Positions 2,461 through 33,864 of a stretch of DNA of 64,000 bases are shown piece after piece. The stretch lies in the NCBI GenBank assembly GCA_040220235.1, contig JAVJTO010000006.1; one strand, written 5' to 3'. Below the pieces are notes generated by a model. It was not told the origin of the DNA. It made no database searches and saw only the letters and a program-made list of their open reading frames with translations. This DNA comes from Coleofasciculus sp. B1-GNL1-01. GTDB taxonomy: Bacteria > Cyanobacteriota > Cyanobacteriia > Cyanobacteriales > Coleofasciculaceae. The translations under genes and the position numbers were made by a program. Numbering within the stretch: the first letter of the stretch is position 1; every line of letters starts with the position of its first letter.

Positions 2461-2514
2461 ATCATGCTCCATTTTTATACTTGTTATCGGTTGTTGCAGG
2501 GTTTTGGTTCTTAT
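2461..2514. repeat. ~55-bp imperfect direct repeat, copy 2 (encodes the C-terminus of the HEAT protein)
   Basis: Matches 651-705 with about 6 substitutions and 1 indel. Confidence 0.85.
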
Positions 2515-5233: not shown

Positions 5234-5236
5234 TTG

Positions 5237-9424: not shown

Positions 9425-9480
9425 TATTTGAGGTAGGGGCGCAAGGGCTTCATCCATCATCCATGTAAACTTAAGCTTAA

Positions 9481-9522
9481 CCCCTCTCCCCCAGCCCCTC
9501 TCCCACCAGGGGAGAGGGGAGC
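9481..9522. repeat. GC-rich palindrome CCCCTCTCCC-accag-GGGAGAGGGG (REP-like or stem-loop)
   Basis: The inverted arms are visible between the ATPase and STAND genes. Confidence 0.6.
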
Positions 9523-9569
9523 AAGAAGGAAACGGTTAAGAGAATAGCCTCCATTATATAAAATGTAAT

Positions 9570-17984: not shown

Positions 17985-18025
17985 GCTGTTATGCATTTAA
18001 ATTGGGTATTAGTAGCGAGCAAGAT
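17985..18025. mobile_element. One-ended fragment of the AGCTG MITE
   Basis: gctgttatgcatttaaattgggtattagtagcgagcaagat is nearly identical to 33983-34023. Confidence 0.8.
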
Positions 18026-18409
18026 ATGCTACTCAGAGATCGAGAGATTTACGATGTGAATCAATCTATCATCGCCGCTGAAACTGGAGTGCCTGTGAGT
18101 GCTGAAGTTCTGGCACTTGTACTCAATAGTCTTGATGACAGTAGCTCTAGAGTTTGGTTAGGTGGTACTGTGTCTATTCCAGAAACAACAGACTCGGAAA
18201 TAATCGATATACTGATTAGTACAGGTTCGTGGGGGGCGGTTTTGTGGGAACCCTTGGCTCATTTAGGTCACATAGTTGTTGTTGATGGAATTGACGAGAC
18301 TGGAAAAATTCTAATTCGTGACCCTTAGGATGCTACAAGTTATAAGATGGATAGAGAAGAATTTATAAATTATTGGAATAGTCAAGCCATTTATTCACTA
18401 AGGCGATGA
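18026..18409 (+). pseudogene. Disrupted C39/papain-like cysteine peptidase
   Basis: GHIVVVDG...ILIRDP followed by TAG at 18326-18328 where TGG (RDPW) is expected. The frame continues as DATSYKMDREEFINYWNSQAIYSLRR to TGA 18409. No upstream catalytic Cys segment is present; the MITE fragment abuts the 5' end. Confidence 0.7.
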
Positions 18410-18900
18410 ACGTAAAAGTTTTATCAATTAAACCCGCCCAAAAGCCTAACTCCTATGAGGTATTGTTGTCGATTGGTGAAAATAAGCACTTATTCAAATT
18501 TACCACTGAAGTTAATCAAGTGGGAGGTCGTCAACTTCAGACAACTCATGGAGAGCGCAGGTTTTTAGATTGGTTCAGGTTTAATCAGCGGGTAGCCATG
18601 AATGTAAGTAAGTTAGTCTCTCAATTTTACAAGAAAGAAGCCGTTGAACTTCCAGCAGATGTCGGTAAATTTGTGACTTCTGAAGAAGCTGTATCAACAT
18701 TGAAGCCATTTAAATGCGATCGCCAGCCAGAAACGGGTGATGGCGGTAGAGAAAGTTTAATTGATCAGGATACAGGAAAGACGAGTCAGGACGTTCGTCA
18801 AAAAGCGATCGCGTTAGTCGAAAACTTGCCAGACTCTTTGCTGGATGAAGCCGTTCACGTTTTGGAATCGTTGTCTGTCAAGGCTAATACTCCAGAGTAG
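18406..18900 (+). CDS. Hypothetical protein coupled (ATGA overlap) to the peptidase pseudogene, with a short helical C-terminal module
   Basis: 164-aa ORF. Its ATG overlaps the restored stop of the upstream frame. C-terminus DVRQKAIALVENLPDSLLDEAVHVLESL. Confidence 0.7.
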   Translation: MNVKVLSIKPAQKPNSYEVLLSIGENKHLFKFTTEVNQVGGRQLQTTHGERRFLDWFRFNQRVAMNVSKLVSQFYKKEAVELPADVGKFVTSEEAVSTLKPFKCDRQPETGDGGRESLIDQDTGKTSQDVRQKAIALVENLPDSLLDEAVHVLESLSVKANTPE

Positions 18901-18914
18901 CGATCGCTGAGAGT

Positions 18915-20495
18915 TCAAAACCGTTCTCCTACGCCCAAATGCACCTGAGAATCCCCCTGATCATTTAAGCCAAAATCCACCTGTACTGGACCAAAAGGCG
19001 ATCGCACTCTCACCCCAACCCCATAACCAAATCCACTCCCTGGCTTATCCCGCACCTCTCCCGGTTCCCCAGTAACAGTATCCCCTGAACCTAAATCTGT
19101 GGCATAATCCGCAAATATCCGACCCCCTAACCAAGTAAACACCGGAAACCGATATTCAGCCGTGGCTTGCAGGTAAGACCGACCTGCACCCACTTCCCCA
19201 CTCTGATAGCCGCGTACCGAACTCCCCCCGCCGAGGCTAAAGGCTTCATAAGCAGGTAAATCGCCAATCACGGTTCCTCCCTGAAGATTAAACACTAAGG
19301 TTTGATCGCCAGAGGTGAACCCAAATAACTCCACCGGAACATATTGGGTATAACTTCCACTCACCCGATTAAAAATAATATCGGCTTCACCCACAGGAAC
19401 CGACTGATCCATCCCGACTCTGACATTAGATCCTTGGCTGGGATAATCGGTATCATCGCGATTATCTTGCACCGCCGATAGATTCACCGTCAATAAATCA
19501 TCTTGACCGCGATCGCTTAAACTCAACGGATTGCCAAATTCATCCACAGGCTGCACCTGATCGGTAAACGCCTGATCCCGAATCGACACCCGCTGATAAG
19601 ATACTCCTACCCCAGCCTGCCAATTCCCTCCCAGAGGACGAAACACTTCCCCACTTCCCCCCAAACGATGCACCCACGGCGTTTCCCCATTCGGCAAATC
19701 CACCTCGCGATCGCCACCAATAAACACTTCCGATGGAGAACGCTGATTAAATACCGCCAAACTGTACCCTGTCCGCAACGGATCACCCGCAATCCACGGA
19801 TCAGTAAAACTCACCTCAAATCCTAGAGTATCTTCGCCCCCTTCCAGTTCTAGCGCCAAGTTCTGATTATTCCCGCCCAGATTCTCCTCCTCTAACCGCA
19901 ACACCCCATAAATCCCTTTTGCCCGACTTGCACTGGGAAAAGCGGTGACATTAAAGGATGAATCCTCAACCACATTCACAATCATGACAATTTGATTGGG
20001 TTGATTGGTCTGTTGGAGACTGAGGGTAGCATCCTCGACACTATCTAACTGCGTGACTCGTTCTAACCCCTGCTGGGCGACCTCTGGACGATAAACGTCT
20101 CCAGGTTGCAGATCAAATTCTCGCGTAATGATATAAGGACGAGTGTTTCCGGGAGTGGGTTGACCGTCTTCATCAACAAAGCGAACTTGGATATCCGCGA
20201 TCGCAACAGGTCTCCTGGAAGGAATAGGATTACGGTTTGGTGATTGAGGACGTTGAGGCACATCGGGGAGAGTCGTCTGCTTCTGGAAGGGTTGCGATCG
20301 CCTCTGGCGGTACGTGGGGTTTAATCGCGCTTCGATTGGCATCCCCTGATTATCCACAAACGAACCATACTCAACTGGCGAAACTACGTCTATTTCCTGT
20401 CCCCGACTCGATGCAGCCGCCAATAATTCTGCACCTACCCCAGCCAATACTAGGGGAAGAATAAACCACTTGCGCCACCGTTGGTAGAACCCCAT
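18915..20495 (-). CDS. Omp85/BamA-TamA family outer membrane protein
   Basis: Signal peptide, Pro-rich linker, POTRA-like GNTRPYIITREF segment, barrel motifs NLGGNNQ and LGGGSSVRGY, C-terminal GERF. Confidence 0.92.
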   Translation of the reverse strand: MGFYQRWRKWFILPLVLAGVGAELLAAASSRGQEIDVVSPVEYGSFVDNQGMPIEARLNPTYRQRRSQPFQKQTTLPDVPQRPQSPNRNPIPSRRPVAIADIQVRFVDEDGQPTPGNTRPYIITREFDLQPGDVYRPEVAQQGLERVTQLDSVEDATLSLQQTNQPNQIVMIVNVVEDSSFNVTAFPSASRAKGIYGVLRLEEENLGGNNQNLALELEGGEDTLGFEVSFTDPWIAGDPLRTGYSLAVFNQRSPSEVFIGGDREVDLPNGETPWVHRLGGSGEVFRPLGGNWQAGVGVSYQRVSIRDQAFTDQVQPVDEFGNPLSLSDRGQDDLLTVNLSAVQDNRDDTDYPSQGSNVRVGMDQSVPVGEADIIFNRVSGSYTQYVPVELFGFTSGDQTLVFNLQGGTVIGDLPAYEAFSLGGGSSVRGYQSGEVGAGRSYLQATAEYRFPVFTWLGGRIFADYATDLGSGDTVTGEPGEVRDKPGSGFGYGVGVRVRSPFGPVQVDFGLNDQGDSQVHLGVGERF

Positions 20496-20623
20496 CAGCC
20501 ACCTTACCCGCTACGTGCCAGTTCCGCTTTTACAACCGATGTTATCAGTATATTTCCCATCAGGGAAGGTAGAGATATTCCGCCGGAATATCTCTACAAT
20601 AATGTTACGCTTTGTTGAAATTC

Positions 20624-20926
20624 CTAGAAATTCCCAAAACCCGGACAAAGCACATTCAAAAGTTCAGGCGGAATCTCCTCGTAATGTTCCAGCACAAAGT
20701 CCATAAAGGCGAGATGGCGCAAATCTCTGGGTTGAGGACGGCGGTAATTACGACCTCTTCTGAACCAACTATCAACAGTAGACATGGAACGGGAACAGAT
20801 AAAAGCCATCGTTTCATGATTTACCAGCCATTTCGCATAAAACTGTTGCGGCGTCATTCCCAGTTGACAGTAACCATAGAGGTCAATTAAAGCCTGTTCG
20901 CGTTCAGTGATAGGACGGGGTGTCAT
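20624..20926 (-). CDS. Small helix-turn-helix protein (cyanobacterial family)
   Basis: MTPQQFYAKWLVNHETMAFICSRSMSTVDSWF HTH-like segment. The ATG at 20926 overlaps the stop of the upstream gene. Confidence 0.75.
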   Translation of the reverse strand: MTPRPITEREQALIDLYGYCQLGMTPQQFYAKWLVNHETMAFICSRSMSTVDSWFRRGRNYRRPQPRDLRHLAFMDFVLEHYEEIPPELLNVLCPGFGNF

Positions 20927-21549
20927 CGGCTTTCCTCCCAAGGTTCCAGGTCATCTTCCCAAGCCGTATCAGCTACCGTCCACCGGGAACTGGGGGAACA
21001 TTTGTCCAGCCAAATCAGATAACACCATGTCCAACCACAGTGATGAGACGCAAAGCCGTAGAATCTGCCGATCGCAGTTCCCCAGTCTGGAGATGTTGGC
21101 GGATTGGGGAGTTTCGGGTTGAGGCTGTCTGCGCGATCGCGAATCCATTGCAGCTTATCCCCATAGAGAAATCTCGGCGGTTTGACGTGAGGGAAGTCAG
21201 TGGGGAGTTCAACGACTGAGAAGCGCTTGTGACTAAAGCTGATGGGTAAGTCGCAGCCGCCATAACCCATGGCTTTGAGGTAGCCGGATACAATTTTGCC
21301 ATTGAGAGTCGCGGTTAACTCTCGGATCAGGATTGCGGCGAGGCTTTCCAGTTCCGATTGGCTTACATTCATCCCGACTGCATCAAACTCAGTGTTACAG
21401 AGGGTTTGCAGGCGAGAGAGGAGAGAGGCGATCGCAAAATCATCCAAGGCTTGCTGATAGCCCCTCTGGTCAGTGGATGGGCGAATTAAGTCGCGATCGC
21501 ACGTACTTTTTGAGAAATTTGGCATAGGATTGAAATTGCTCCTATTCAA
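20923..21549 (-). CDS. Hypothetical protein with a Trp-rich C-terminal domain
   Basis: 208-aa ORF coupled to the HTH gene. C-terminal PPRFLYGD...DWG..IGRFY...W.WCYLIWLD..SPS. Start codon uncertain. Confidence 0.65.
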   Translation of the reverse strand: MNRSNFNPMPNFSKSTCDRDLIRPSTDQRGYQQALDDFAIASLLSRLQTLCNTEFDAVGMNVSQSELESLAAILIRELTATLNGKIVSGYLKAMGYGGCDLPISFSHKRFSVVELPTDFPHVKPPRFLYGDKLQWIRDRADSLNPKLPNPPTSPDWGTAIGRFYGFASHHCGWTWCYLIWLDKCSPSSRWTVADTAWEDDLEPWEESR

Positions 21550-21562
21550 TAGTGGGAGTCAG

Positions 21563-21606
21563 CGCCAGACCTATCGCTTTGGACGGCAGGAGGTCTGGCG
21601 TTTTTG
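21563..21606. other. Stem-loop CGCCAGACCT...AGGTCTGGCG followed by a T-run on the + strand
   Basis: 10-bp perfect arms around atcgctttggacggcagg, then tttttt. Confidence 0.6.
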
Positions 21607-21648
21607 TATAGTGCCTGCGCGTTTTCTAAACATTTGAAATACTTGAAT

Positions 21649-21703
21649 TTAGTTAACGCGCATTTACTGTACATGACTATATTAGAACATGCGCGTTAAC
21701 TAA
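21649..21703. promoter_or_regulatory. 15-bp perfect inverted repeat with a 25-bp spacer in a divergent promoter (putative operator)
   Basis: TTAGTTAACGCGCAT-N25-ATGCGCGTTAACTAA. The operator role is inferred. Confidence 0.65.
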
Positions 21704-21757
21704 TCAATAGGGAATGTTAGAATTTTTTTAGAATATGCGTATGAACTAAACGATAAT

Positions 21758-21976
21758 ATGCCCAAAGGTAAAAAGCGTGTCAGGGGAGAACCCGTTGATC
21801 ACAATGAATTAAAGAAAAGTCTTAACTTGACAGTTACACCGACGGGGGCGCGTGGACTAGAAGAAATCGCCCAGGAATTGGGGCTAAAATCTAAAAGTGA
21901 GTTAGTGGATCAAATTGGGCGTAGGCGGCTAATCGTTTCTCCAAATCCAGTAATTGAGAAGGATACAGAGGAGTGA
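21758..21976 (+). CDS. Small ribbon-helix-helix (CopG-like) DNA-binding protein
   Basis: KKSLNLTVTPTGARGLEEIAQELGLKSKSELVDQIGR: a beta strand plus two helices with an S.SEL motif. Confidence 0.75.
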   Translation: MPKGKKRVRGEPVDHNELKKSLNLTVTPTGARGLEEIAQELGLKSKSELVDQIGRRRLIVSPNPVIEKDTEE

Positions 21977-22167
21977 AATTAATCTCTTTTCGTGGTTTTC
22001 CTGTCTTCAGAAAAGATATAGATACAAAAAGACGAGCTGCTTTGGTAAAATAATAGGTTTGTCTGAAGCTTAGAATCAGAGACAGCAACGCCATTACCGC
22101 GAGGAGACCAGGTAAGTACGTGAATTTCAGATTAGGTTAGAACAGTGACATAATAGGTTTAATTTTA

Positions 22168-23448
22168 ATGATTAGTATCAACCAAGAGAAAAATGATAAA
22201 ATTCATGAATTATGCAATTTGCCAGAGGGCTGGCAATGGAAAAAATTATCGGAAATAGCTGATACAACAAGCGGAGGTACACCTAGAAGAAACCAATTAG
22301 AATACTTTCAAGGAAATATTAATTGGTTTAAATCAGGTGAATTACAAGATGCAGAAATATTTGAAAGCCAAGAAAAAATAACTTTGGGAGCTATAAAGGA
22401 TTCAAATGCCAAAGTTTTTCCAAGAGGTACTCTTTTGATAGCTATGTATGGTGCTACGGCTGGTAAGTTAGGAGTTTTAGGTGTAAAAGCTGCTACCAAT
22501 CAAGCCATTTGTGCTGTTTTCCCCAAAAAACAGTTTGGTTTACCATTGCTCAACAATTGGTTCTTGTTTTATTACTTTAAATCCATTCGGCAGCAACTGA
22601 TCAATCGTAGTTTTGGTGCAGTTCAGCCCAATATAAGCCAAAGATTAATTAAAGAGACTTATATACCAATTCCATTTCCTAAAGATATTGTTCTCTCTCT
22701 TGATATTCAGAATCGCATTGTAGCCCGCGTCGAATCCTTACTCGGTGAATTGAAAGGCGATCACCAGATTCTGGACAAAATGCATCGGGATACTAGCCGA
22801 TTTATTGACATGAAATTGGAGGAAATTTTTGAAATTTTGCAGTCAGCTAGACAACCACTGATGGATGTTATTGAATCACCTCCCAGAAACGGATGGTCGC
22901 CAAAATGTGATAATAACCCCAATGGAACTCCTGTACTTAAGCTGGGAGCAGTCTTAAAGTTTCAGTATAAGCCCGATGAATTTAAGCGAACAAGCCTACC
23001 CACTGATCCGAATGCACATTACTGGCTTAAACCAGGAGATGTTTTGATATCTCGAAGTAATACATTCGAACTTGTAGGTCATGCGGCTATTTATTCAGGA
23101 ACTCCTTTTCCCTGTATTTATCCAGATTTGATGATGCGGATTAGAGTGGATCAATCAAAAGCTGATAGCCGTTTTCTAGTTTATTGGCTTCAGAGTAAAG
23201 AAGTACGTCATTTTATTCAATCTCGTGCTTCTGGAGCCAGTCCGACAATGAAAAAAATTAACCAAGGTCATGTATGTAATATTCCATTTCCGGTAATTTC
23301 TTTAGATGAACAACGTCAATTAGCTCATTATTTAGACTCTATTCAATCTGAAGTTAACCAAATGTTGAAAACAATGCAACAAGATGCAAAACTACTTGAA
23401 CGATTAGAACAGGCAATTCTAGAGAAAGCATTTCAGGGGCAGCTATAG
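22168..23448 (+). CDS. hsdS: Type I R-M specificity subunit with two TRDs
   Basis: LPEGWQWKKLSEI, SGGTP, ATNQAI, QPNISQ, Q.RIV, a second TRD ending FPVISLDEQ..., C-terminal LEQAILEKAFQGQL. Confidence 0.93.
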   Translation: MISINQEKNDKIHELCNLPEGWQWKKLSEIADTTSGGTPRRNQLEYFQGNINWFKSGELQDAEIFESQEKITLGAIKDSNAKVFPRGTLLIAMYGATAGKLGVLGVKAATNQAICAVFPKKQFGLPLLNNWFLFYYFKSIRQQLINRSFGAVQPNISQRLIKETYIPIPFPKDIVLSLDIQNRIVARVESLLGELKGDHQILDKMHRDTSRFIDMKLEEIFEILQSARQPLMDVIESPPRNGWSPKCDNNPNGTPVLKLGAVLKFQYKPDEFKRTSLPTDPNAHYWLKPGDVLISRSNTFELVGHAAIYSGTPFPCIYPDLMMRIRVDQSKADSRFLVYWLQSKEVRHFIQSRASGASPTMKKINQGHVCNIPFPVISLDEQRQLAHYLDSIQSEVNQMLKTMQQDAKLLERLEQAILEKAFQGQL

Positions 23449-23451
23449 ATT

Positions 23452-25467
23452 ATGACGAGCGCCAGCGAAAAGCTTAATCAGGTTTGGTCGGAATTCCAAA
23501 AAGCTGGAATTACCGATGATTTAAGCGTCATTGAATATATTGCCAGATTTCTCTTAGAAGAAAGCAATTCAATTGTAGCTTCATCCAGCGACTCAAAAGC
23601 CCAGAGTCTTGTCCCCCATGATCCAGAAAAATTTCCATCAGAGAAAGCAATACCTAAAAGACCACCTAGTGACTTAAATATAGATATAGAAACTATCAAG
23701 CAGTATTTGCGTGAAGCAGCAGAACAAGCAGGAGACATCGCAACCCTATTTGACCGTTACGTTCTCTTTCGCTTACCTTCCATACTTCCAGGGGGACGCT
23801 ATCCGACTCCCAGGCACATAACTACTTTTCTACAGCGTATTGCCCAGGTTAAACCCAGTCATAGTATGGTAGATATTGCCTGTGGCAGTGGTGGTTTTTT
23901 AGTCGCTCAAGGGATAACTGTTACCTCCCCACTAAGAGTGGGCATTGATATTTCTCCTGAATGGAAACGACTCGCATGGGCTAATACCAGATTGCACGGC
24001 TTTGTCCCACGCTTGCTCAATGGAAACGCTCTTGATAGTAAGAATTTAGCAAAAGTTTTTACTGATAATAAGTTTGACCGCATTTTAATAAACCCGCCCT
24101 TCGGCGAAAAGATTGATAACAAGTTAGCAGAAAGCACCCTTGGGCAGAGGGTGGGTAGCCGAAGCGAAACAGCCCTGACTACACTAGCTCTCAAAAAACT
24201 ATCTGAGGGAGGAAAAGCAGCTATCTTAGTTCCTTCAGGTTTGCTATTTAGCAACAATACAGGTGAGAGAGAATTACGAAGGCAGCTAGTCGTTGACTAT
24301 AAACTTGAAGCGGTCATCTCCTTACCCAAAGACGCTTTACAACCCTACAGTCCGTTACAAACTCACCTGCTGCTTGTGAGTAAACCCGATAATTCCGCTC
24401 AACCCTCAAAAAATGCAGAGAATCCAATCTGGTTTTGGCAGCTTGAACAGGACGGCTACCCTAGTGGTCGAGGTCGTGACTTAACTCAAGACCCCAATGA
24501 ATCAGCAAGTGACTTACCCTTTGTCACCAGAGTTCTCACCAATCCGAATCCCCCTCTTTTATTTCCCCAACACAATCCTCGAATAGCCATCAGCAGAATA
24601 GCTGAAGGTACTTCGCTACTGGGCTTTGTTTGCCAAGCGACCTCGACAGAATTGACCTCGGTCACGTTTTATCCACAACCGAATGAAACCACCTCTGCAT
24701 TCCTGTTAACTGAGACTGCACCCCTAGGTGAACAGCGCATCTGCGATCGCATCCCTTTGGATGGTAGCGAACCCTCACAGGTTGAAAATCCACAGCAGCT
24801 AATTCAAGACCTATATAAACTTAAACAGAAAGACCCTGATCCGGGTAAACGCCTATTCTCTCAACCCGTAAAAGCAGCAGCAATCTCAGTTTTACCCGAA
24901 AGCCAAGCTGTAGGAAGCAATAGAGTCAGACTCCTCGGTGTAGCGGTGCAATGGGACACGATTCAAGCGCCAACCTACGATTTACGCCCAGAACGTTATG
25001 TTGAAAAGCAGGAGGAACCGCGTTCGACTGATTCTCCGGCTGAACTCCTTAGCCAAATTTACCAAAACCAGAGAAAGCTGTCTGGGCACATTGAGAGCCT
25101 ATTTGGTCGTCTGGAACTCCCTGCGATCGCCAATCAACAACTTCCTTCTCCCTTGGCAAATATAGCATCCCTGGGAATTCTCGAAAAACTGAATCCAGAA
25201 CAGAAGACCATTTGGGAGCGAATTCAGGCAAAAATAGAAAAAATTGATAGCCGTGATCAAGATAACCCACAAACCGCAGTACACTTTACCTTAGAGGAGT
25301 TGCTCCAAGAGGATGACAGCGAGATATCAGAAATGACTCGTTCAACTGTCGATCTCCTGGAACGCCTGGGAGTAATTGTACCAGTGACGATTACAACTCC
25401 TAGCACCGATGAGTCAATTCAGTGCTATCGTCGTGTTACAGAGCGAGACTTGTGGCAGTTCGACTGA
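23452..25467 (+). CDS. HsdM-like N6-adenine DNA methyltransferase with an internal insertion and an extra C-terminal domain
   Basis: GRYPTPRHI (motif X), DIACGSGGFL (motif I), NPPF (motif IV), AAILVPSGLLF, LEAVISLP, HsdM-like tail YDLRPERY...SPAELL, then about 110 additional residues. Confidence 0.88.
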   Translation: MTSASEKLNQVWSEFQKAGITDDLSVIEYIARFLLEESNSIVASSSDSKAQSLVPHDPEKFPSEKAIPKRPPSDLNIDIETIKQYLREAAEQAGDIATLFDRYVLFRLPSILPGGRYPTPRHITTFLQRIAQVKPSHSMVDIACGSGGFLVAQGITVTSPLRVGIDISPEWKRLAWANTRLHGFVPRLLNGNALDSKNLAKVFTDNKFDRILINPPFGEKIDNKLAESTLGQRVGSRSETALTTLALKKLSEGGKAAILVPSGLLFSNNTGERELRRQLVVDYKLEAVISLPKDALQPYSPLQTHLLLVSKPDNSAQPSKNAENPIWFWQLEQDGYPSGRGRDLTQDPNESASDLPFVTRVLTNPNPPLLFPQHNPRIAISRIAEGTSLLGFVCQATSTELTSVTFYPQPNETTSAFLLTETAPLGEQRICDRIPLDGSEPSQVENPQQLIQDLYKLKQKDPDPGKRLFSQPVKAAAISVLPESQAVGSNRVRLLGVAVQWDTIQAPTYDLRPERYVEKQEEPRSTDSPAELLSQIYQNQRKLSGHIESLFGRLELPAIANQQLPSPLANIASLGILEKLNPEQKTIWERIQAKIEKIDSRDQDNPQTAVHFTLEELLQEDDSEISEMTRSTVDLLERLGVIVPVTITTPSTDESIQCYRRVTERDLWQFD

Positions 25468-25496
25468 AGCGAATCAGAATTAGAGGGGGAGAGTAT

Positions 25497-27032
25497 ATGA
25501 AATTGAAACGACTCTACCTAGGAGATTATCGGGTCTTACGTGACCTAGAGATTCGCTTTTGTCCACCGACTGAACGCCGCCTAACTTTTACTCGCAACTA
25601 TAGCCTTGACTTTCTCGTTGGTGTCAACGGCACAGGCAAATCAACGGTGCTGAAGATATTATGGAACTTAATGCAGCAATTAGAGGGAAATCCTTACATT
25701 GAATATCCCTTTGAACTGGAATATGAACTGGGAACGGATAACCAAAAGCGCACGATTAAAATTTCTAATCGCCACGAAGATCCGGAAACCGAAGAAATGA
25801 TTTTCACCCCAGTTCCCTCAGCTTTGGAAAATAACCAACCTATTGCGATAAGTCGTGATATCTTACCGGAACTCGTCGTTGCCTTTACAACAGGTAGCGA
25901 AGGAGAATGGGATTTGGGTGGAGACCAAAAAAGTTTTGACAGTGGCAATTTAGCTGAATTACAAGACTTGTCTCAACTCGAACGAGCAATTCGAGAGTTA
26001 CCCGGAAAGCGAACCAACTTGGAAATCACGGAGGGACGAAATACAAGCGAAGGTAGTCGCTGTTTGTTTATCAAAAACCATCAGCTTCCTTTACTCACCC
26101 TTTGTAGTCTATTAGTCGATTTAGCAGAAAATTCTGATCAGTCAGGTTTAAAGGACGTTTTTCAAGAAGTATATATAAAACCCATATCCGGCTTTTCCCT
26201 GAAATTCCGGAAAACTCATGATCCCGCTTATTTAGGTGACTGGGATGATGTCAAGAGTTTAGCCCGGATAGCATCTTTGTGTCTGCATCAAGGAAATGAT
26301 TACTTATTGGTGTTTGACTTAACTAGCACTGGGCATTCCATTGCTAAAGAGATTTTTAACAGCTTCTCTAGTGGTTTGGAGTTGTTCAAAAAACTCTCCT
26401 TACTCGCTAATGTGGATGAAAATGGACAATCCGTCTTGAGAGAAGTCAACATCTTTTTAGAACGGACAAATTCCCCGCATCCCGAAACCCATCTAGACGT
26501 TCCCCCCTTACACCTGTTTGAGTGGCTCAGTGACGGGGAACGTAGTTTTTTAGGTCGGATGAGTCTATTTACTTTGTTAGGTACTACCGAAGCTTTGATT
26601 ATTCTAGATGAACCAGAAGTTCACTTTAATGATTTCTGGAAACGCCAAATTGTGCAACTCTTAGACGCTAAGCTCAAAGATCGCCATAGCCATGTTTTAA
26701 TTACGACTCACTCCAGTATCACATTAACTGATGTTCCCAAAGAAGATATTGTCGTCTTAGATCGGAATGGCAACTACACTCAGAGTTCATTTAATCCAAC
26801 ATTGCGAACCTTCGGAGCTGATCCTAGCGATATCATGGTGCATGTGTTTGGTGCGCCACATCCTGCTGGAGCATCCAGTGTGCACCGTATTGAGCAAGAG
26901 TTAGAAAACTCATTAAATCGAAGTCCCCATGAACGACGAGAGGTACTCGAAGAATTGCTGAATAATGTCGTTGCTCAAGGATATTGGAGCTATCTAATTC
27001 GTCGCGAATTGCAAACAATGGAAAAGGAATGA
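25497..27032 (+). CDS. ABC-family (AAA_21/PtuA-like) ATPase
   Basis: Start MKLKRLYLGDYRVL after a GAGGGGGAG RBS. Walker A GVNGTGKS, signature LSDGE, Walker B IILDEPEVHFN, H-loop LITTHS. Confidence 0.9.
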   Translation: MKLKRLYLGDYRVLRDLEIRFCPPTERRLTFTRNYSLDFLVGVNGTGKSTVLKILWNLMQQLEGNPYIEYPFELEYELGTDNQKRTIKISNRHEDPETEEMIFTPVPSALENNQPIAISRDILPELVVAFTTGSEGEWDLGGDQKSFDSGNLAELQDLSQLERAIRELPGKRTNLEITEGRNTSEGSRCLFIKNHQLPLLTLCSLLVDLAENSDQSGLKDVFQEVYIKPISGFSLKFRKTHDPAYLGDWDDVKSLARIASLCLHQGNDYLLVFDLTSTGHSIAKEIFNSFSSGLELFKKLSLLANVDENGQSVLREVNIFLERTNSPHPETHLDVPPLHLFEWLSDGERSFLGRMSLFTLLGTTEALIILDEPEVHFNDFWKRQIVQLLDAKLKDRHSHVLITTHSSITLTDVPKEDIVVLDRNGNYTQSSFNPTLRTFGADPSDIMVHVFGAPHPAGASSVHRIEQELENSLNRSPHERREVLEELLNNVVAQGYWSYLIRRELQTMEKE

Positions 27033-28261
27033 TTTATCAAGTAGAGTTACCTGAACTCACGCTTAAGCGACTGACGGATGTAGTTTACCTACAAATGCGT
27101 TTACTAAGATACGCTGCTTCTACGGAGACTCTAAGTCGGCAAACCTGTGAGCGTTACCTGAAAGGATATAAAAGGTTTCGAGGACGACATAAACAAATTG
27201 CTGATTGGCTTTGGCGAGGTCCAAAAAGGCGCAAACTTTTAGAGAATTTTTCTCAAGGTTCACGTCCAGAAAAACTTGAATGGAGCAGATGTTTGTTTCG
27301 AGAAGCGCTGGCATTTCTGACTAACCCAGTCGGTTATATGACACCATATAGAAAAAAAGCCGCCCCAGATTGGCAGCAAGCAGGCGCTGAGTTTCTTTGC
27401 CTGTTCTATGAATATCTGGGTAAAGAATTACCTGATTACTTTTTTTCAGAAAGAGGAGCAACCCAATTTAATAAAAATAACCTTAAATCTAATTTTTTTA
27501 AGACTAATAATCAACTTGAAGTTTGCCCTGCTTGTGACTTTTCAGCTACTCGTAGTCAAGTTGATCACTATCTTCCCATTAGCCTCTATCCCCACCTTTC
27601 TTGTCATCCTTTTAACTTAATTCCTATCTGTAGTGAGTGTAATTCGTTAATGGTTAAGGGAAATCATGACGTACTTCAGAAAAACTCAAAAAATCGACGT
27701 AAATTAGAAGATATATTTTTGATATACAAAAATTGTGGACTTGGAGACTTAACTTATTTAAAGCTTGAACTAGAAAAAGGCTATAGGTCTATAAGCTTGA
27801 TGGAATTTAAGCCGCGTAAAGGAGAAAATCTCCGTGACTGTATCGACGCATACTGTAATGCCTACCAAATTCCAGATAGATGGTTGGAAATAGTGAAAAC
27901 AATTGAAAACCAGCTTTTCAGTCAAATTAAACAATTTATGAAAGCAGCCAAAGGACAAAGAGAATCACTTAACATTTTTGACGTAGACCGTGGACTTACA
28001 GAACTGCTACAAAGCTTGTGTGAAAACCAAGGTAAAATACCCTTTGCATTTCCCATGTCTTGGTGGCTTGCCACTTTAATTGAGAGAGAATTAAAACCAG
28101 CTATCAGTAGTTCTCAGCAGATAGAGGTCAAAAATTTTCCCTTACTTGAGGAAATAGCTGATTGGATACGCCAGGATAACATACAACACCCGGCTTACAT
28201 TAAAGAACCACACCTTGAGCAAGCCCGAAATTTAAGGACAATAGTAGCAGAAGAAGGGTAG
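27029..28261 (+). CDS. HNH endonuclease-domain protein
   Basis: CPAC...VDHYLPISLYPHLSCHPFNLIPICSECN zinc-binding HNH motif. ATGA overlap with the ATPase stop. Confidence 0.88.
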   Translation: MIYQVELPELTLKRLTDVVYLQMRLLRYAASTETLSRQTCERYLKGYKRFRGRHKQIADWLWRGPKRRKLLENFSQGSRPEKLEWSRCLFREALAFLTNPVGYMTPYRKKAAPDWQQAGAEFLCLFYEYLGKELPDYFFSERGATQFNKNNLKSNFFKTNNQLEVCPACDFSATRSQVDHYLPISLYPHLSCHPFNLIPICSECNSLMVKGNHDVLQKNSKNRRKLEDIFLIYKNCGLGDLTYLKLELEKGYRSISLMEFKPRKGENLRDCIDAYCNAYQIPDRWLEIVKTIENQLFSQIKQFMKAAKGQRESLNIFDVDRGLTELLQSLCENQGKIPFAFPMSWWLATLIERELKPAISSSQQIEVKNFPLLEEIADWIRQDNIQHPAYIKEPHLEQARNLRTIVAEEG

Positions 28262-28295
28262 ATTTGTATTCTTTATAACCCACCCGACAAGCAAT

Positions 28296-31200
28296 TTATG
28301 TTTTCTCGATCAATGGTTTCTCAATGATCGCGTAACTCCGAATCTGCCAAGGCGCTATCCTCAAGGCTTGCAGTGTCGGTGATTCTGGAGACTGATCCAC
28401 AGGACGTTCTAACAAATCCACAGAACCTTCTATCGCCAAACCTAAATCACTATTGAATGAAACTTCCGCTTCCTCTCCCTGAGATTCATAACACCGCAGA
28501 ATCCAACGGTGGGGATTATCTTGCGATCGCTTGAACGCAATCACTACTAAATTTTCCGCTGATAACTCTAGCAAGGAACCCCTGGGGGGCAAGGAGTTAA
28601 TACCCTGATTCGCCCTGTCTTCCAGCCGGACAACTTGCAGGGGGAAATTTAACTCATACCCTCGCTGAACCGTTTTCGCGGCTTGCCAAGTTCCTGCATG
28701 AGGATAAAGGGCGTAAGTGAAGTGGTGAATTCCGCGATCGGCGTCGGGATGGGGCCACATTGGGCTTTTGAGTAGGGTTAATCGGAGTTGAGAGGGTTGG
28801 GCGTCATAGCCGTATTTACAATCATTCAGGAGACTCACGCCATAAGTTTCATCAGCCAAATCTGCCCAACGCAATGCTGGAACTTCCCATTTGGCTTGTT
28901 CGGCGGGGGTTTGGGGTTTTGTCGGGCGTTGAATTGCGCCGCAGGGAATTTCATAGGTGGCGTAGTCGGCTTCTAGGTTTAAGGGGAATGCGGCTTTGAC
29001 TAATACCTGGCGTTCCTGCCAATCTACGGTTGTGGCTATTTTAAGTAGGGGTGAATCTGATGTCAGGATGTAGTCTTGGCAAAACTGGGATTGTCCTAAT
29101 TGACGAATGACTTGGAGACGCGATCGCAGGTTTCCGCGTTCTAGCCATTGAATGGATTGTAGTTGGGTTGGTGGTAAGGGATGTTGATGGTAATTGGGGT
29201 CAATATTCCAGGCGTCCCAATATTGTCCTTTGTCTTCAAAGGCTTGCAGTTGATTCCCGGCACCGCTTAATATTTCTCGTTGGTTTTGTTTATCAAAAAT
29301 GCTGCTTAAGTCGCCTGTATTGGGATTGACGATAACTTTCAGGTAGTCATTTTCGAGGATAAATTCGTTGTTGGGTTGGGGATTGGGGTTGTCGTTTTCT
29401 GGGGGAGTGTCTGTGGGACAAAGCCAGACTATTTTATAGCCGATCGCGGGGATATCTTTTGCCAGAAATAGCAGATGGGTTTGATTCTTTGCTTCGTTTG
29501 TATGGAACCCGATTTGGCTGGGGATTTTTTCGCCGTTACTATCGTATAGTTGCCCGGATTGATTGTTGGTGATTTGGATTTGTTTTTTCAACGCAGAGGT
29601 TCGCAGAGGGAAGCGCAGAGGTAGCGCGAACGCGCCGCTATCGCTAACGCAGAGGGAGAGGGGAATGAGTTCTGAACGTTGCCAGTTGAGGGGGTTGAAA
29701 ATGATTAGGGGTTGGGCGTTGGGGTGAGGGGGTGAGGGGAGGGTGATTTGGGACGCGATCGCGTTTAGGGATTCGGCGATAATGGTTTGGGTTATTGTCT
29801 CGGTTTGTTGCCATTTTTGGTTGGCTTCAATGAAGACTTCGGGAATTGAGGTTCCGGGTAAGATGTCGTGGAATTGATTAAAGAGGACGTTTTTCCATGC
29901 GGTTTCTAGTTGAGTTTGAGGATAGTTTTTTTGGGTGATTAGGGTGGCGAGGGAGGCAAAGAGTTCGGCTTGATACAGTAATCCTTCACAGCGACGATTC
30001 CAGCGTTTTTGGTCAGCGTGGGTGGTATAACAGCCGCGATGGAGTTCTAGATAGAGTTCGTTATTCCAAATTGGATTAGGAATTGAATAGTTGTAGGGGC
30101 GGGTTTCACTATTATTGTTTTTTGTCCCCCTGATGTGACTAAACCCGCCCTCATCTCCTCTATCTTCCCTATCTCCCCTATCGCCTCTCTCTTCTAATTG
30201 ATTCTCAAGATTCTGCAAATATTTCAACGCGGTGGTAAATTCTATTTTTGGAAAAAAGGGAGACTGTTGCCAACGCTGGGCGACTTCTAGCATATCGCGA
30301 GTGGGACCACCGCCATGATCGCCTACACCAGGTAACCAAAATATATCCTTAATTTTGGTTTGGGTTTGCCACTTAATCCCATAATTGGTCATGGTAATTG
30401 GATTCGTGTCCATGACTCCAGTAATATTGGGTGGTGACATTAAACTGAGAATTTGAGTTCCATCCGGTGATTGCCACCAAAAGAGGTGATAGGGGAATTC
30501 AGTTGTGTCATTCCAATGCAGTTTTTGGGTGACAAAATAGTTGATTCCGCCTTGTTTTAAGAGTTGCGGTAATTGCCACGTAAAGCCAAAACTATCTGTA
30601 ACCCAGGCAACTTGACTAATTTGACCGAATTTTTCTTGGGTATAATGCTGACCATAAAGAATTTGGCGGACAATGGATTCACCGTCAATTAAGTTGAGTT
30701 CTGGTTCAACCCACATCCCACCAACTGTTTCCCATTTTCCGGCGATGACTTGCTGTTTTATTCGGCTAAATAAGTCGGGACGATTCTGTTCGATCCAGGC
30801 ATAAAGGGCAGGTGTTGTATGACAATAGGTTAAATTAGGAAAGTCTTGCTGTAAACTGAGAACTGATTCAAACGTTCGCACGGCAACATCCCAAGTTGCC
30901 TGAGTTGACCATAACCAAGCCATATCTAAATGGGCATGACCGAGTAAGTGGAATGTAGCGTTAGGGGTGAGGTTTTGGGATAGTAAAGTTTGGCGTAATT
31001 GAGTTAGCGATCGCGTAAACTGATCGGCATCAGATACCCTCTGCCAGTTAATCTCAGCTACAGCAGCAGCCAGTGTTTCTAATTGTTCCGGTGCAAAGGC
31101 GGTTAAATACTTCTGCAATACGGTTAATTCATCCGCCACAAATCCCGGATCAATCGAATTTGTTGATTCATAAATACAGCAAGACCGCATTAACCCGCCA

Positions 31201-31634
31201 ATATCATGACCTGGACTCACTAACCGTACCATTAAGGTAATGATTTCTCCAGGACTAACGGTTGAACTTAAAAGGATTCTTGCTGAAGAATCAAATAAGT
31301 CTCCTTCTTGGACTAACTCACCATTCACAAAAATTTTGGCATCTTCCGCCCACCAGGTTAGCGCTAGTCGTAAGGTTAGTCCGGCTAAAGGATAGTCTTG
31401 TAAATCATGAGGAATGATAAATTGTTGCCCGAACCACATTACTTGGCGTCCGGCTGACCAGATAATATAGCCTTTATCATTGAGTTCAACACTTGACCCG
31501 TTTACCAAAATATGGTTACTTATCTCCTCCAGAGGCAGATCTTCAGACCACAGTTTCCAATTAGTCTGCACATTCACCTGAGTTAAGGCGCGGAGTTTGG
31601 CAATAGAGTCAGAAAGGGAGGGTAAGGAAGACAT
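28296..31634 (-). CDS. Alpha-mannosidase, glycoside hydrolase family 38
   Basis: GHAHLDMAWLW, DSFG, GVGDHGGGPT, ELYLELHRGCYTTHA, NQFHDILPG. Confidence 0.95.
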   Translation of the reverse strand: MSSLPSLSDSIAKLRALTQVNVQTNWKLWSEDLPLEEISNHILVNGSSVELNDKGYIIWSAGRQVMWFGQQFIIPHDLQDYPLAGLTLRLALTWWAEDAKIFVNGELVQEGDLFDSSARILLSSTVSPGEIITLMVRLVSPGHDIGGLMRSCCIYESTNSIDPGFVADELTVLQKYLTAFAPEQLETLAAAVAEINWQRVSDADQFTRSLTQLRQTLLSQNLTPNATFHLLGHAHLDMAWLWSTQATWDVAVRTFESVLSLQQDFPNLTYCHTTPALYAWIEQNRPDLFSRIKQQVIAGKWETVGGMWVEPELNLIDGESIVRQILYGQHYTQEKFGQISQVAWVTDSFGFTWQLPQLLKQGGINYFVTQKLHWNDTTEFPYHLFWWQSPDGTQILSLMSPPNITGVMDTNPITMTNYGIKWQTQTKIKDIFWLPGVGDHGGGPTRDMLEVAQRWQQSPFFPKIEFTTALKYLQNLENQLEERGDRGDREDRGDEGGFSHIRGTKNNNSETRPYNYSIPNPIWNNELYLELHRGCYTTHADQKRWNRRCEGLLYQAELFASLATLITQKNYPQTQLETAWKNVLFNQFHDILPGTSIPEVFIEANQKWQQTETITQTIIAESLNAIASQITLPSPPHPNAQPLIIFNPLNWQRSELIPLSLCVSDSGAFALPLRFPLRTSALKKQIQITNNQSGQLYDSNGEKIPSQIGFHTNEAKNQTHLLFLAKDIPAIGYKIVWLCPTDTPPENDNPNPQPNNEFILENDYLKVIVNPNTGDLSSIFDKQNQREILSGAGNQLQAFEDKGQYWDAWNIDPNYHQHPLPPTQLQSIQWLERGNLRSRLQVIRQLGQSQFCQDYILTSDSPLLKIATTVDWQERQVLVKAAFPLNLEADYATYEIPCGAIQRPTKPQTPAEQAKWEVPALRWADLADETYGVSLLNDCKYGYDAQPSQLRLTLLKSPMWPHPDADRGIHHFTYALYPHAGTWQAAKTVQRGYELNFPLQVVRLEDRANQGINSLPPRGSLLELSAENLVVIAFKRSQDNPHRWILRCYESQGEEAEVSFNSDLGLAIEGSVDLLERPVDQSPESPTLQALRIAPWQIRSYAIIEKPLIEKT
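30093..30192. repeat. REP-like palindrome plus 9-bp repeats, in frame inside the mannosidase
   Basis: GTAGGGGCGGGTTT...GATGTGACTAAACCCGCCC (similar to intergenic 36416-36475) followed by (tatctcccc)-like units, encoding ERGDRGDREDRGDEGGFSHIRGTKNNNSETRPY. Confidence 0.85.
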
Positions 31635-31947
31635 AGTAATGAATGATAAAAATGAATAGTTAACAATCAGAATTACGAAAACATCTGTCGCATTAATCCG
31701 TCTGGGGTGGAAACCTAAGAAAGCAAGCGTTTAAGTACGCTTTAGTTTACTACAGTAAAGACATTGAACCCGTTTTAACGGGTTTTAGCTTTGACGCGGA
31801 AATTTATTTCCCGGCTAGACTAAATTAAGGGTGTATGGTGGGTGATGCCAACGTTTATGGCGCTAAAGCGCAACTACGAACATTCGCGAAGAAAGCGATA
31901 GAGTATGGAATAATAAGTAAGTCATCGCTGCTTCTGCTTGCATCACC

Positions 31948-33864
31948 ATGTCTGCTTCTACCCCAGGTCGCTACCGCAGCCGATTGTTCAATCTTATCAA
32001 TCACCATTCTCGCCGACTCATCGATCGCGGTGAACGGGCGATCCGACATCTGAAAGTCGCGGCTGTTTGGGGAACGCAAATTCTCCTCTATCCTATCTAT
32101 ATGGTTGTCCAAGCCAGTCTCACGGCTGGGCGTCAGCTTTCGGCAGAGGCAAAAGCGGGATGGATTCGATTAAAAGCTTTGACCCACTCCCAACCGCCAG
32201 AACAACCGCCTGCTGTTGATACGCCGATTCAACGGGTTCTTAATTCGACTGGGCGGTTGAAACCGCAGCTACACAAACAAAACCTGCCTACGCAGGTTTC
32301 CCAATCCCCACGGGTAGAAATTCAAGGCGTAGCCAGTCTCCTCGCCACCCGAACCCTAGTTCTGGTTTCCGTCGCTAATGAAATTCTGGATATCCTCACC
32401 CCAGAACAACAGCAAAAACTGGCGGCGAGAATAAGCTGGGAACTGGCTACCCTTTATCGTCAGTGGCGCTTAGTTGATAATTTAAAGGTTTCCTGGGTAC
32501 ACCGCCAACTCAGTCACTTGGCTAAACCGTCTCTGTTTCTCCCCTTAAGACTATTTTGGCAACTCATGGCATGGGTGCAAACCAGTCCGGTTGCGATCGC
32601 GATTAATCTTTTCGGTGAGTCTACCTTATCAGACTATCAGGAACCCATGCCTGCGATCGCATCTCCCACCGAAATCCCCCAAAGCTTTGCCTATTCCTGG
32701 CTGCAACAATTCGCACCGGGGGGAACATTAGCCGCGATCGATGACACCATTGCCCAATGGGAATCGCACCCGTTACAGACATCAAATCACGTTGCGATCG
32801 CACTCCGTCACCGCAGCCAAACTCTACTGCAAACCTTCAAAACCTCGTTCATCACTCCTCGACAATCCACTGATCCAACCCAGACATCAGCATCTCACTC
32901 CTTTTGGCTGGTAGGATTAATTTACGCCGCGATCGACTACTTTTTTGGTCAGCGTAGTTCTCACCCATTCCATCACCAAGACACAACCTCAGTTAATCCT
33001 ACTGAGGACATTAATCAACGATTCGCTAATTCAACAAGTTTCGTCACCCTTCCTGGGGCAGAATTCACGTATAAAACTGAACCTGATCCATGGTTAACCT
33101 GGGATGATTTATTTGGGTGTCCAAACCCCACGTTCACACCAAATTCTGCTGTCACTAACTTTATTAGCTTGAAGGGAAACGTTACCCCAACGTTACCCCA
33201 ACTTTCCCCAGGATTTACAGTCAAAAAAATGACTATCCGGAACAACGCTATTGGTGCTATTCTCCAGCGTTTTGGTTTCTATAAACAAGCTGAAACCCTA
33301 CGGATAAGCGATCAAGAACACCCCAAGGCACAACAAAAATTTGTTAACTTTAGACAGAGTATTCAATCTAAATTACTACGTTGGATTCCTCTCCTGAACC
33401 TAACCGAAAACGTCGATCAAAACCACAACCAAGTTACTCACACCCAAACGCAAATAGTTAAGTCTTTCCCTCCACTGTTATATCCAATAGCATTAAAAAT
33501 TTCAGGACTTTCTACATTAGAAAATAACTTAAAATCTGGAACAGTAGTCAAGGTATTTCCGGCGACCTTATCAGAGCAAAGTTCGACAAGTTTACCTGAG
33601 CCTTTCCCCTCCTATTCATCTTTGCCGTTATCTTTTCATTCTGCCTTACCTTCACCATCCGAACAACCCATTTCCTATTCCCAAAACCATGATATCGAAC
33701 CTGCGCCCGACTGGATTGAAACGGAGGCAATTGCCACAGGATATGTTAAACACCCCTTAGAAGAAATCCTAGAATGGTTGGATGTGGGTATGCTTTTGCT
33801 GGAGGAGGTAACGATTAAAGCTTGGCAATGGATGCGACAATTTTTTACCAAGGACAATGCATGA
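31948..33864 (+). CDS. Hypothetical protein (cyanobacterial)
   Basis: 638-aa ORF with ordered ends (YRSRLFN..., WIETEA...GYVKHPLE.ILEWLD) and a low-complexity middle. Confidence 0.75.
   Translation: MSASTPGRYRSRLFNLINHHSRRLIDRGERAIRHLKVAAVWGTQILLYPIYMVVQASLTAGRQLSAEAKAGWIRLKALTHSQPPEQPPAVDTPIQRVLNSTGRLKPQLHKQNLPTQVSQSPRVEIQGVASLLATRTLVLVSVANEILDILTPEQQQKLAARISWELATLYRQWRLVDNLKVSWVHRQLSHLAKPSLFLPLRLFWQLMAWVQTSPVAIAINLFGESTLSDYQEPMPAIASPTEIPQSFAYSWLQQFAPGGTLAAIDDTIAQWESHPLQTSNHVAIALRHRSQTLLQTFKTSFITPRQSTDPTQTSASHSFWLVGLIYAAIDYFFGQRSSHPFHHQDTTSVNPTEDINQRFANSTSFVTLPGAEFTYKTEPDPWLTWDDLFGCPNPTFTPNSAVTNFISLKGNVTPTLPQLSPGFTVKKMTIRNNAIGAILQRFGFYKQAETLRISDQEHPKAQQKFVNFRQSIQSKLLRWIPLLNLTENVDQNHNQVTHTQTQIVKSFPPLLYPIALKISGLSTLENNLKSGTVVKVFPATLSEQSSTSLPEPFPSYSSLPLSFHSALPSPSEQPISYSQNHDIEPAPDWIETEAIATGYVKHPLEEILEWLDVGMLLLEEVTIKAWQWMRQFFTKDNA

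Follow-up and report, generated by a model that had tools for sequence, protein, structure and literature searches.

A deletion allele of a type I restriction-modification operon in Coleofasciculus and a candidate adaptor for its Septu-like ATPase-HNH pair

Introduction

What does a type I specificity subunit do in a genome that holds no intact restriction subunit to act with it? The question is raised by four co-directional genes of the cyanobacterium Coleofasciculus sp. B1-GNL1-01, which encode an HsdS, an N6-methyltransferase (MTase) resembling HsdM, an ABC ATPase and an HNH nuclease. They lie in a stretch of 64,000 nucleotides of contig JAVJTO010000006.1 (assembly GCA_040220235.1), referred to here as the window. 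The original prediction, made from the letters of the window, took them for an undescribed four-gene anti-phage system lacking HsdR, in which the ATPase-HNH pair either replaces HsdR or guards the methylase-specificity complex in the manner of PrrC. Comparison with related loci shows a different origin: the four genes are the last four of a six-gene type I restriction-modification (R-M) operon, hsdR-hsdM1-hsdS-M2-ATPase-HNH, where M2 is a second, divergent MTase paralogue.

The parent operon

Relatives of the ATPase were fetched from genomes and metagenomes and annotated with profiles built in this analysis. A total of 103 loci were classified, 59 of which reach a contig edge too early to be judged; the 44 informative loci include close relatives, and the counts are not independent. 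The order hsdM1-hsdS-M2-ATPase-HNH is found in 37 of the 44 (among them L022, which has lost hsdS and part of hsdM1), and a five-gene order, hsdR-hsdM-hsdS-ATPase-HNH with a C-terminal tail on HsdS, in a further five, such that the ATPase-HNH pair is linked to R-M genes in 42 informative loci. A plasmid of Herpetosiphon aurantiacus DSM 785 bears a six-gene copy (Haur_5278-5273). Every M2-type locus carries hsdM1 (37/37). Upstream of it, hsdR is present in 27 of the 37, cut by a contig end in two of these and containing stops in L034, and there is no hsdR within at least 1.5 kb in the other ten.

Because the M2-type relatives carry hsdM1 without exception and hsdR in the majority, the cassette of the window derives from a longer operon by deletion; it did not evolve as a four-gene system without HsdR. 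The stand-alone four-gene design is thereby ruled out; the survey of neighbourhoods proposed with the prediction found, for the most part, the homologues with hsdR and hsdM upstream that it had named as evidence against such a design. The idea that the ATPase-HNH pair replaces HsdR is likewise contradicted as a design, since both coexist in 27 loci.

The family includes several variants. Loci L118 and L130 encode a half-size HsdS (265-272 amino acids) together with an M2 whose motif IV reads APSF, and the upstream MTase of L130 is an atypical 391-residue protein. One HNH homologue (L027:11689-13740) is 683 amino acids long, with about 300 extra C-terminal residues. In L019 (7976-11572), M2 and the ATPase share one frame of 1198 amino acids, with NLPF as motif IV; this fusion was not counted as evidence, as a one-base shift near the end of M2, perhaps a sequencing error, would produce it.

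M2, a divergent methyltransferase paralogue

The fold of M2 resembles that of type I HsdM, and its sequence is 26-32% identical to that of hsdM1 over about 225 core residues in six loci. The 'HsdM-like' label of the original prediction was right as to the N6-MTase family, but the protein is a second paralogue and not the HsdM of the system. PF12161 (HsdM_N) matches the M1 of relatives (E 9e-17 and 1.5e-13) and none of the three M2 proteins scanned. In type I enzymes, the C-terminal helix of HsdM binds HsdS. A corresponding helix at residues 528-550 of the window's M2 matches the M1 helix (E 0.001), and 13 of 18 M2 proteins carry it at E < 0.05, with the best reversed control at 0.41.

The catalytic motif of M2 varies. 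Among non-redundant M2 proteins from the loci, 9 of 51 have a motif IV other than NPPF, as do 34 of 84 M2 representatives, compared with 1 of 29 M1, although the matched contrast (9/51 vs 1/29) is not significant (Fisher p 0.085). NPPY occurs in none of the M2 proteins of either set (0/51, 0/84). In six loci of a phylum sample (L181-L185 and L188) with the order hsdR-hsdM-hsdS-X-ATPase-HNH, the M2 position is occupied by a strongly eroded MTase-like protein, X. It is an M2 homologue by hhalign (probability 98, E 1e-13), its motif IV consists of DPP and an aliphatic residue, and its tail resembles that of M2; in L188, X and the hsd genes are on opposite strands. Such erosion makes catalysis look dispensable in part of the family, while it is possibly intact in the window's M2.

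The winged-helix tail and the ATPase

M2 ends in a tail of about 110 residues, predicted as helix-helix-helix-hairpin (predicted local distance difference test, pLDDT, 81). Its best fold matches are winged helices, transcription factors among them (top Z 7.7, root-mean-square deviation 2.9, 80 aligned residues; the leading matches are tied and none has Z >= 8). The C-terminal winged helices of kleisins, which sit on SMC heads, match with Z 6.3-7.1, a likeness that serves as an analogy only. Searches of the PDB with the tail profile gave nothing better than E 0.01, and in the ESM Atlas the best match (0.77) fell below the lead threshold.

The tail is not confined to M2. A profile built from 41 M2 tails, with no HsdS sequence included, matches the C-termini of 5 of 66 HsdS proteins (E 5.6e-8 to 1.4e-4; the next at 0.26 and the best reversed sequence at 0.24), and these are exactly the HsdS of the five-gene loci. 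A sixth tailed HsdS was found in L178 (E 3e-4 in a small set). Run against 1.84 billion representatives, the profile retrieved 228 proteins, the best 150 of which comprise 102 M2 with an MTase core, 41 short fragments, six partial M2-like proteins and one 1126-residue repeat protein that looks unrelated. Whether on M2 or on HsdS, the tail is always encoded by the gene immediately 5' of the ATPase. Two cyanobacterial loci, L179:4223-7522 (genome G363) and L180:9477-12824 (G359), have HsdS fused directly to a PtuA-like ABC ATPase in open reading frames (ORFs) of 1100 and 1116 codons; hsdM precedes the fusion, a gene for a 316-residue protein follows it, and no hsdR was seen in the 16 kb read.

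Co-folding of two ATPase chains (residues 1-440) with M2 residues 558-671 scored 0.68, compared with 0.00 for the best of three controls, in a model that used alignments built in this analysis and lies outside the calibration of the tool. At least 83% of contacts are shared between runs, and the pLDDT of the partner is at least 74. The mark applied is one that 116 of 157 solved pairs attain, and 2 of 215 mismatched ones; these counts are a rough guide for this job. The predicted interface brings M2 residues 635-643 and 660-668 against ATPase residues 231-277 and 316-343, and includes, on the tail side, Q584, F612 and G640, which are invariant, and on the ATPase side conserved positions that are not catalytic. 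Interface positions within the insertion region of the ATPase show higher conservation (0.57, n=29) than the remainder (0.43, n=228), at a permutation p of 0.003 and without a burial control. The prediction supports a tail that clamps the ATPase dimer, and together with the genomic context it supports M2 as an adaptor between the type I MTase complex and the ATPase.

The cassette and its chromosomal slot

The coordinates in Table 1 bear out the arrangement first described, with a 3-bp gap between hsdS and M2, a 29-bp gap between M2 and the ATPase, and an ATGA overlap between the ATPase and HNH. The catalytic motifs were also rightly read as intact, each of them having been located: motif I (141-149) and motif IV (NPPF, 214-217) of the MTase; Walker A (42-49), LSDGE (344-348), Walker B (368-376) and the H-loop (402-406) of the ATPase; and CxxC (166-169), DH (179-180), N196 and CxxCN (201-205) of the HNH protein, whose catalytic and cysteine residues are unchanged across 15 homologues. 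The ATPase is nearest to Septu PtuA, which its PDB profile matches also indicate (8EE4, 9VH1 and 9N69 among the structures matched), and is 96-97% identical to its nearest named relatives, on Coleofasciculus contigs. The HNH protein matches 9N69_F in the PDB (E 0.003). A promoter scan gave 7 sites where 13 are expected by chance, and an Rfam scan of 18000-32000 gave no match.

Table 1. Features of the cassette and of the island that holds it (window coordinates)
Feature	Position	Strand	Remarks
Variable island, between Omp85 gene and alpha-mannosidase gene	20576-28322	.	Delimited by flank alignments to congeners
hsdM1 deletion scar	22112-22167	+	Homology ends at ~22117, then ~50 unrelated bases before hsdS
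hsdS	22168-23448	+	426 aa; two target-recognition domains; Methylase_S match E 2e-29
M2 (N6-MTase, HsdM paralogue)	23452-25467	+	671 aa; N6_Mtase match E 1e-28
M2 C-terminal winged-helix tail, residues 562-671	25135-25464	+	Proposed ATPase tether
PtuA-like ABC ATPase	25497-27032	+	511 aa; AAA_21 E 9e-15, PADLOC PtuA1 E 7e-31
PtuB-like zinc-binding HNH nuclease, extra N-terminal region	27029-28261	+	410 aa; PADLOC PDC-M01B E 1e-16

Partners for the cassette were sought in the whole genome (G000; a draft of 8.66 Mb in 172 contigs, 100% complete by markers). The absence of HsdR reported for the operon and the window extends to the genome, which holds no intact hsdR; its sole trace is an unlinked 308-residue N-terminal stub of EcoAI/EcoKI type (C83:21286-22209), with no M or S gene beside it. 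The hsdS of the window is the only one found in the genome, hsdM1 was found nowhere in it, and the other two N6-MTases (on C135 and C13) are without an hsdS.

The cassette block is an insertion in a variable, volatile slot. Congener L156 aligns to 20156-20575 and then to 28323-28627, skipping the island; the slot is empty in G011 and G016, where the flanking genes are 157-183 bp apart, and in G012 and G015 it holds a different cassette with an N6-MTase-like gene. That cassette (L155:417-4225 in G012; L158 in G015, where it is split) encodes a 927-residue protein with a weak N6-MTase match and a 346-residue protein with a metallo-hydrolase-like HAHRDH motif and weak PADLOC matches to LmuA and RTasMBL. 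M2 itself was found in four of nine congeneric genomes. In the phylum sample, 3 of 401 genomes have its tail, and among 301 genomes taken around a Chloroflexota centre five have the ATPase. Viral contigs yielded two weak partial matches and no intact relative.

Also within the island, two small ORFs of 105 and 208 codons (20624-21549, minus strand) are divergent from the operon; they have no Pfam match and several paralogous copies elsewhere in the genome. Farther upstream, a 450-residue P-loop ATPase adjoins an 1890-residue nSTAND1-WD40 protein (8072-15242, plus strand), and two HEAT-repeat proteins are encoded divergently from this pair (2462-7900, minus strand).

Loss of hsdM1 and hsdR

The congeners L017 and L061 have hsdM1 in front of hsdS at this chromosomal site. 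The window follows the upstream sequence of both as far as the start codon of hsdM1 at about 22117 and then jumps to hsdS. An assembly artefact at this junction is unlikely because an 8-kb contig of the public run X3, which differs from the window at 147 letters, crosses 21400-24033 unbroken and also lacks hsdM1. The M1-less junction accordingly occurs with two different M2 alleles, that of the window and that of X3. In runs X7 and X9 the sequence reads on into hsdM1 at 22117, and run X1 breaks at the same place; alleles with and without hsdM1 are both present in natural populations. Contigs from the RNA run X9 cover hsdS and M2, and the ATPase and HNH genes little, but the run may include DNA and nothing is drawn from it.

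The loss of hsdR is more widespread. Four loci (L019, L020, L029 and L128) retain 3' hsdR stubs of differing lengths ahead of hsdM1, the first two in genomes with other, more distant hsdR genes. No stub is left in the Coleofasciculus loci, and an orthologous hsdR was not found in the genomes of four congeneric carriers (L016, L017, L030 and G013). On a quick ATPase tree (44 of the 103 loci, no clade test), loci without hsdR occupy four or more positions and are interspersed with loci that have it. The ATPase and HNH frames are open in nine of the ten hsdR-less loci, the broken one being L128. The hsdR gene has been lost repeatedly, with different breakpoints, and the other genes have been kept open.

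Among hsdR-less congeneric alleles, the ratio of nonsynonymous to synonymous divergence (dN/dS) is below 1 for every gene (0.07-0.62), and the M2 tail is 97-100% identical. The target-recognition domains (TRDs) of HsdS are shuffled among the same alleles: in the window, TRD1 is shared with L061 (87% amino acid identity) and TRD2 with L017 (95%). Recombination is evident as well in M2, of which residues 1-240 in the window differ from other alleles by a dS of 0.5-0.8.

Comparison with known systems

No named system matched the cassette in the PADLOC and HMM searches that the original prediction had called for. Of a complete type I R-M system, the window has an HsdS with two TRDs; HsdR is absent, and in place of a canonical HsdM with HsdM_N there is M2. 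As in Septu (PtuAB), a zinc-finger HNH gene comes immediately after that of a PtuA-type ABC ATPase, but the pair is not a stand-alone two-gene unit here, given its linkage to R-M genes. Retron I-A (Eco7) also has an ATPase-HNH pair. In the present case an HsdM paralogue that ends in a winged helix is proposed as the scaffold, there is no reverse transcriptase among the six island ORFs scanned (nor any Rfam match, as already mentioned), the NF041760 score is 51 against a cut-off of 500, and the HNH protein has 410 amino acids compared with 216 in Eco7.

Among systems that involve type I subunits, PrrC has a HEPN-type nuclease domain. Like the pair of the window, it combines a nuclease with an ABC ATPase and belongs to a type I R-M locus, that of EcoPrrI (PMC12707154); it is a single polypeptide, whereas the window has separate ATPase and HNH genes and a dedicated M2 adaptor. 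Ronin employs HsdM and HsdS without HsdR as a decoy for Ocr and ArdA (Silas et al.; bioRxiv 2023.04.06.535777). It has one HsdM and, as effector, the 61-residue membrane protein RonA, whereas the window has M2 for the canonical HsdM and the ATPase-HNH pair as effector; with gaps of 3 and 29 bp and a 4-bp overlap, the operon has no space inside it for RonA, for which no sequence search was made. The m4C/m6A M1M2S enzymes such as PacII share with the parent operon two MTase genes and one HsdS. Their M2 carries NPPY, is highly similar to M1 and belongs to an operon of the order M1-M2-S-R (PMC5100572), whereas the M2 described here, with an NPPF or eroded motif and about 28% identity to M1, lies 3' of hsdS and bears an extra tail. 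MADS brings ABC ATPase-nuclease genes together with HsdM-like and HsdS-like ones in a single defence operon, but it has eight genes and a Toprim protein, MAD4 (PMC13662399), in place of HNH, and its models score low on the window (MAD2 43 vs a cut-off of 720, MAD3 22 vs 420, MAD5 67.5 vs 400).

A similar arrangement is that of TIGR04435 loci, in which type I R-M genes, with a long C-terminal extension on HsdS, are followed by ATPase and HNH genes; three of the six fetched have no hsdR in the stretch read. They have no M2, and the ATPase of the window scores 101.4 against the TIGR04435 cut-off of 300. Three cyanobacterial TIGR04435-positive loci (L173, L174 and L175) have the order hsdM-hsdS(tail)-ATPase-HNH, and the stretch fetched contains no hsdR. 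By analogy, the cassette would work like PrrC, Ronin or a retron-PtuAB guard, yet by gene content and model scores it belongs to none of them.

A possible guard and its alternatives

The reading favoured here, and on balance a probable one, is a guard akin to PrrC and the retrons: a PtuAB-type nuclease tethered to a type I MTase that would fire upon anti-restriction attack. The C-terminal helix of M2 would take an HsdM site on HsdS, as type I architecture suggests, and its tail, seated on the ATPase dimer, would hang the ATPase-HNH pair on the MTase complex. This complex would keep the pair in check until a phage anti-restriction protein binds or disrupts it; the HNH nuclease would then be switched on and cut, most likely, tRNA or DNA, aborting the infection. 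Forms without hsdR would act as Ronin-like decoys. The reading is favoured because of its parallels. In retron Eco7, a scaffold of reverse transcriptase and msDNA binds PtuA dimers and suppresses PtuAB toxicity; upon cleavage of the scaffold by a phage nuclease, PtuAB is released and cuts tRNA-Tyr (PMC12673091). PrrC is activated when EcoPrrI is inhibited by T4 Stp (PMC12707154), Ocr binding releases AriB in PARIS (PMC10802264), and the HsdMS decoy of Ronin works without HsdR and with MTase activity dispensable (bioRxiv 2023.04.06.535777). As for targets, Septu EcB88 cuts tRNA-Tyr (PMC13096335), and cleavage of DNA is reported for another Septu system (as cited in PMC11555353). The earlier suggestion of a PrrC-like guard has thus gained support from the tail on HsdS or M2, the HsdS-ATPase fusions and the co-fold that passed its controls, while the firing step, with its trigger and target, we infer from these parallels.

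Several observations weigh against this reading. Broken copies are common (L022, L128, L153 and L026), and for this reason the loss of hsdR may be ordinary decay. As the alleles recombine, the purifying selection may partly predate that loss. The ATPase-HNH pair stands alone, without M2 upstream, in two informative loci (L026 and L113), and the window is alone among the fetched loci in having hsdS-M2 without hsdM1. Most M2 proteins, the window's included, retain NPPF, and the excess of altered motifs over M1 falls short of significance. The HsdS tail of TIGR04435 loci has no detectable homology to the M2 tail (hhalign probability 1.5). In m4C-type systems, M2 and HsdS alone gave no methylation (PMC5100572). 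The limits given above for the co-fold and the conservation test count on the same side.

The same tether would also serve a second cutting arm, in which HsdS delivers the ATPase-HNH pair to unmethylated sites, where it cuts invading DNA and backs up or substitutes for HsdR. The continued shuffling of TRDs among hsdR-less alleles and the DNA-cutting Septu would fit this, and MADS pairs methylation with ATPase-nuclease modules (PMC13662399). It is nonetheless unlikely: HsdR and the pair coexist in 27 loci, eroded M2 motifs are common, and loss of hsdM1 should expose host sites to an intact nuclease, yet the M1-less allele, its junction spanned by the X3 contig, has four open genes. That this allele survives speaks against an active nuclease directed to unmethylated sites, unless M2 can methylate by itself. 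The tail may instead be a DNA-binding winged helix, as winged helices commonly are and as its transcription-factor matches allow, within a heteromeric M1-M2-S enzyme of the kind known to exist (PMC5100572). The ATPase-HNH pair would then be a self-sufficient neighbour, as in the stand-alone Septu systems that provide defence (PMC13096335) and the two loci without M2. This separation into independent modules appears more doubtful still, given a tail invariably encoded directly upstream of the ATPase, the HsdS-ATPase fusions, the co-fold and the absence of NPPY from M2.

The family may also be a guard of which the window holds a dead or dying copy, hsdR having been lost first and then hsdM1, with the rest intact only because little time has passed since the deletion or because the pair does no harm once its scaffold is gone. 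The chances of this are about even. No other fetched locus lacks hsdM1, which is kept in congeners and in runs X7 and X9; decay intermediates are frequent, the slot is volatile, and the precedent of m4C-type M2 points the same way. The HNH gene differs from that of L016 by a dS of only 0.004, which leaves little time for lesions. Against a remnant stand the intact motifs, the junction shared by two M2 alleles that differ at 147 letters over 21400-24033, and Ronin, which does without HsdR and MTase activity. For the M1-less copy of the window itself, a weakened or dead remnant is rather likely and a live decoy somewhat doubtful. A broader version of the guard, tentative and on present evidence improbable as a whole, would see in the tail a portable winged-helix tether coupling Septu-type ATPase-HNH pairs to type I MTases. 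It would be grafted onto HsdS or onto an M2 drifting towards a pseudo-enzyme, or replaced by HsdS-ATPase fusion, in operons that repeatedly shed HsdR, and here even a working HsdM, to become pure decoys; the cassette of the window would be the minimal live form, a lure in the shape of an MTase that draws phage DNA mimics and is coupled to an abortive nuclease.

Implications

The restraint and triggering of PtuAB-type nucleases have been described structurally for retrons (PMC12673091), and in one study of stand-alone Septu the candidate trigger was ruled out (PMC13096335). ABC ATPase-nuclease pairs are reported near BREX and R-M systems in two sources whose available portions do not mention the six-gene layout (PMC12839542, PMC12065111). 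In the full-text literature searched, outside of which lie subscription papers and bioRxiv supplements, no description of an R-M1-S-M2-ATPase-HNH system was found, although Krishnan et al. 2020 (NAR) may cover it. The same literature yielded no experimental study of R-M-linked ATPase-HNH loci, though such loci have been catalogued, as the name TIGR04435 attests. The parent six-gene operon apparently carries an undescribed adaptor linking a Septu-like effector to type I R-M.

The locus names a concrete, mutable M2-ATPase interface and comes with a natural deletion series of six, five and four genes, which together open the guard, decoy and second-nuclease models to direct test. If the guard reading is true, a dedicated adaptor, sometimes a pseudo-methyltransferase, would be added to the means by which bacteria guard their restriction enzymes against inhibitors of the Ocr/ArdA type.

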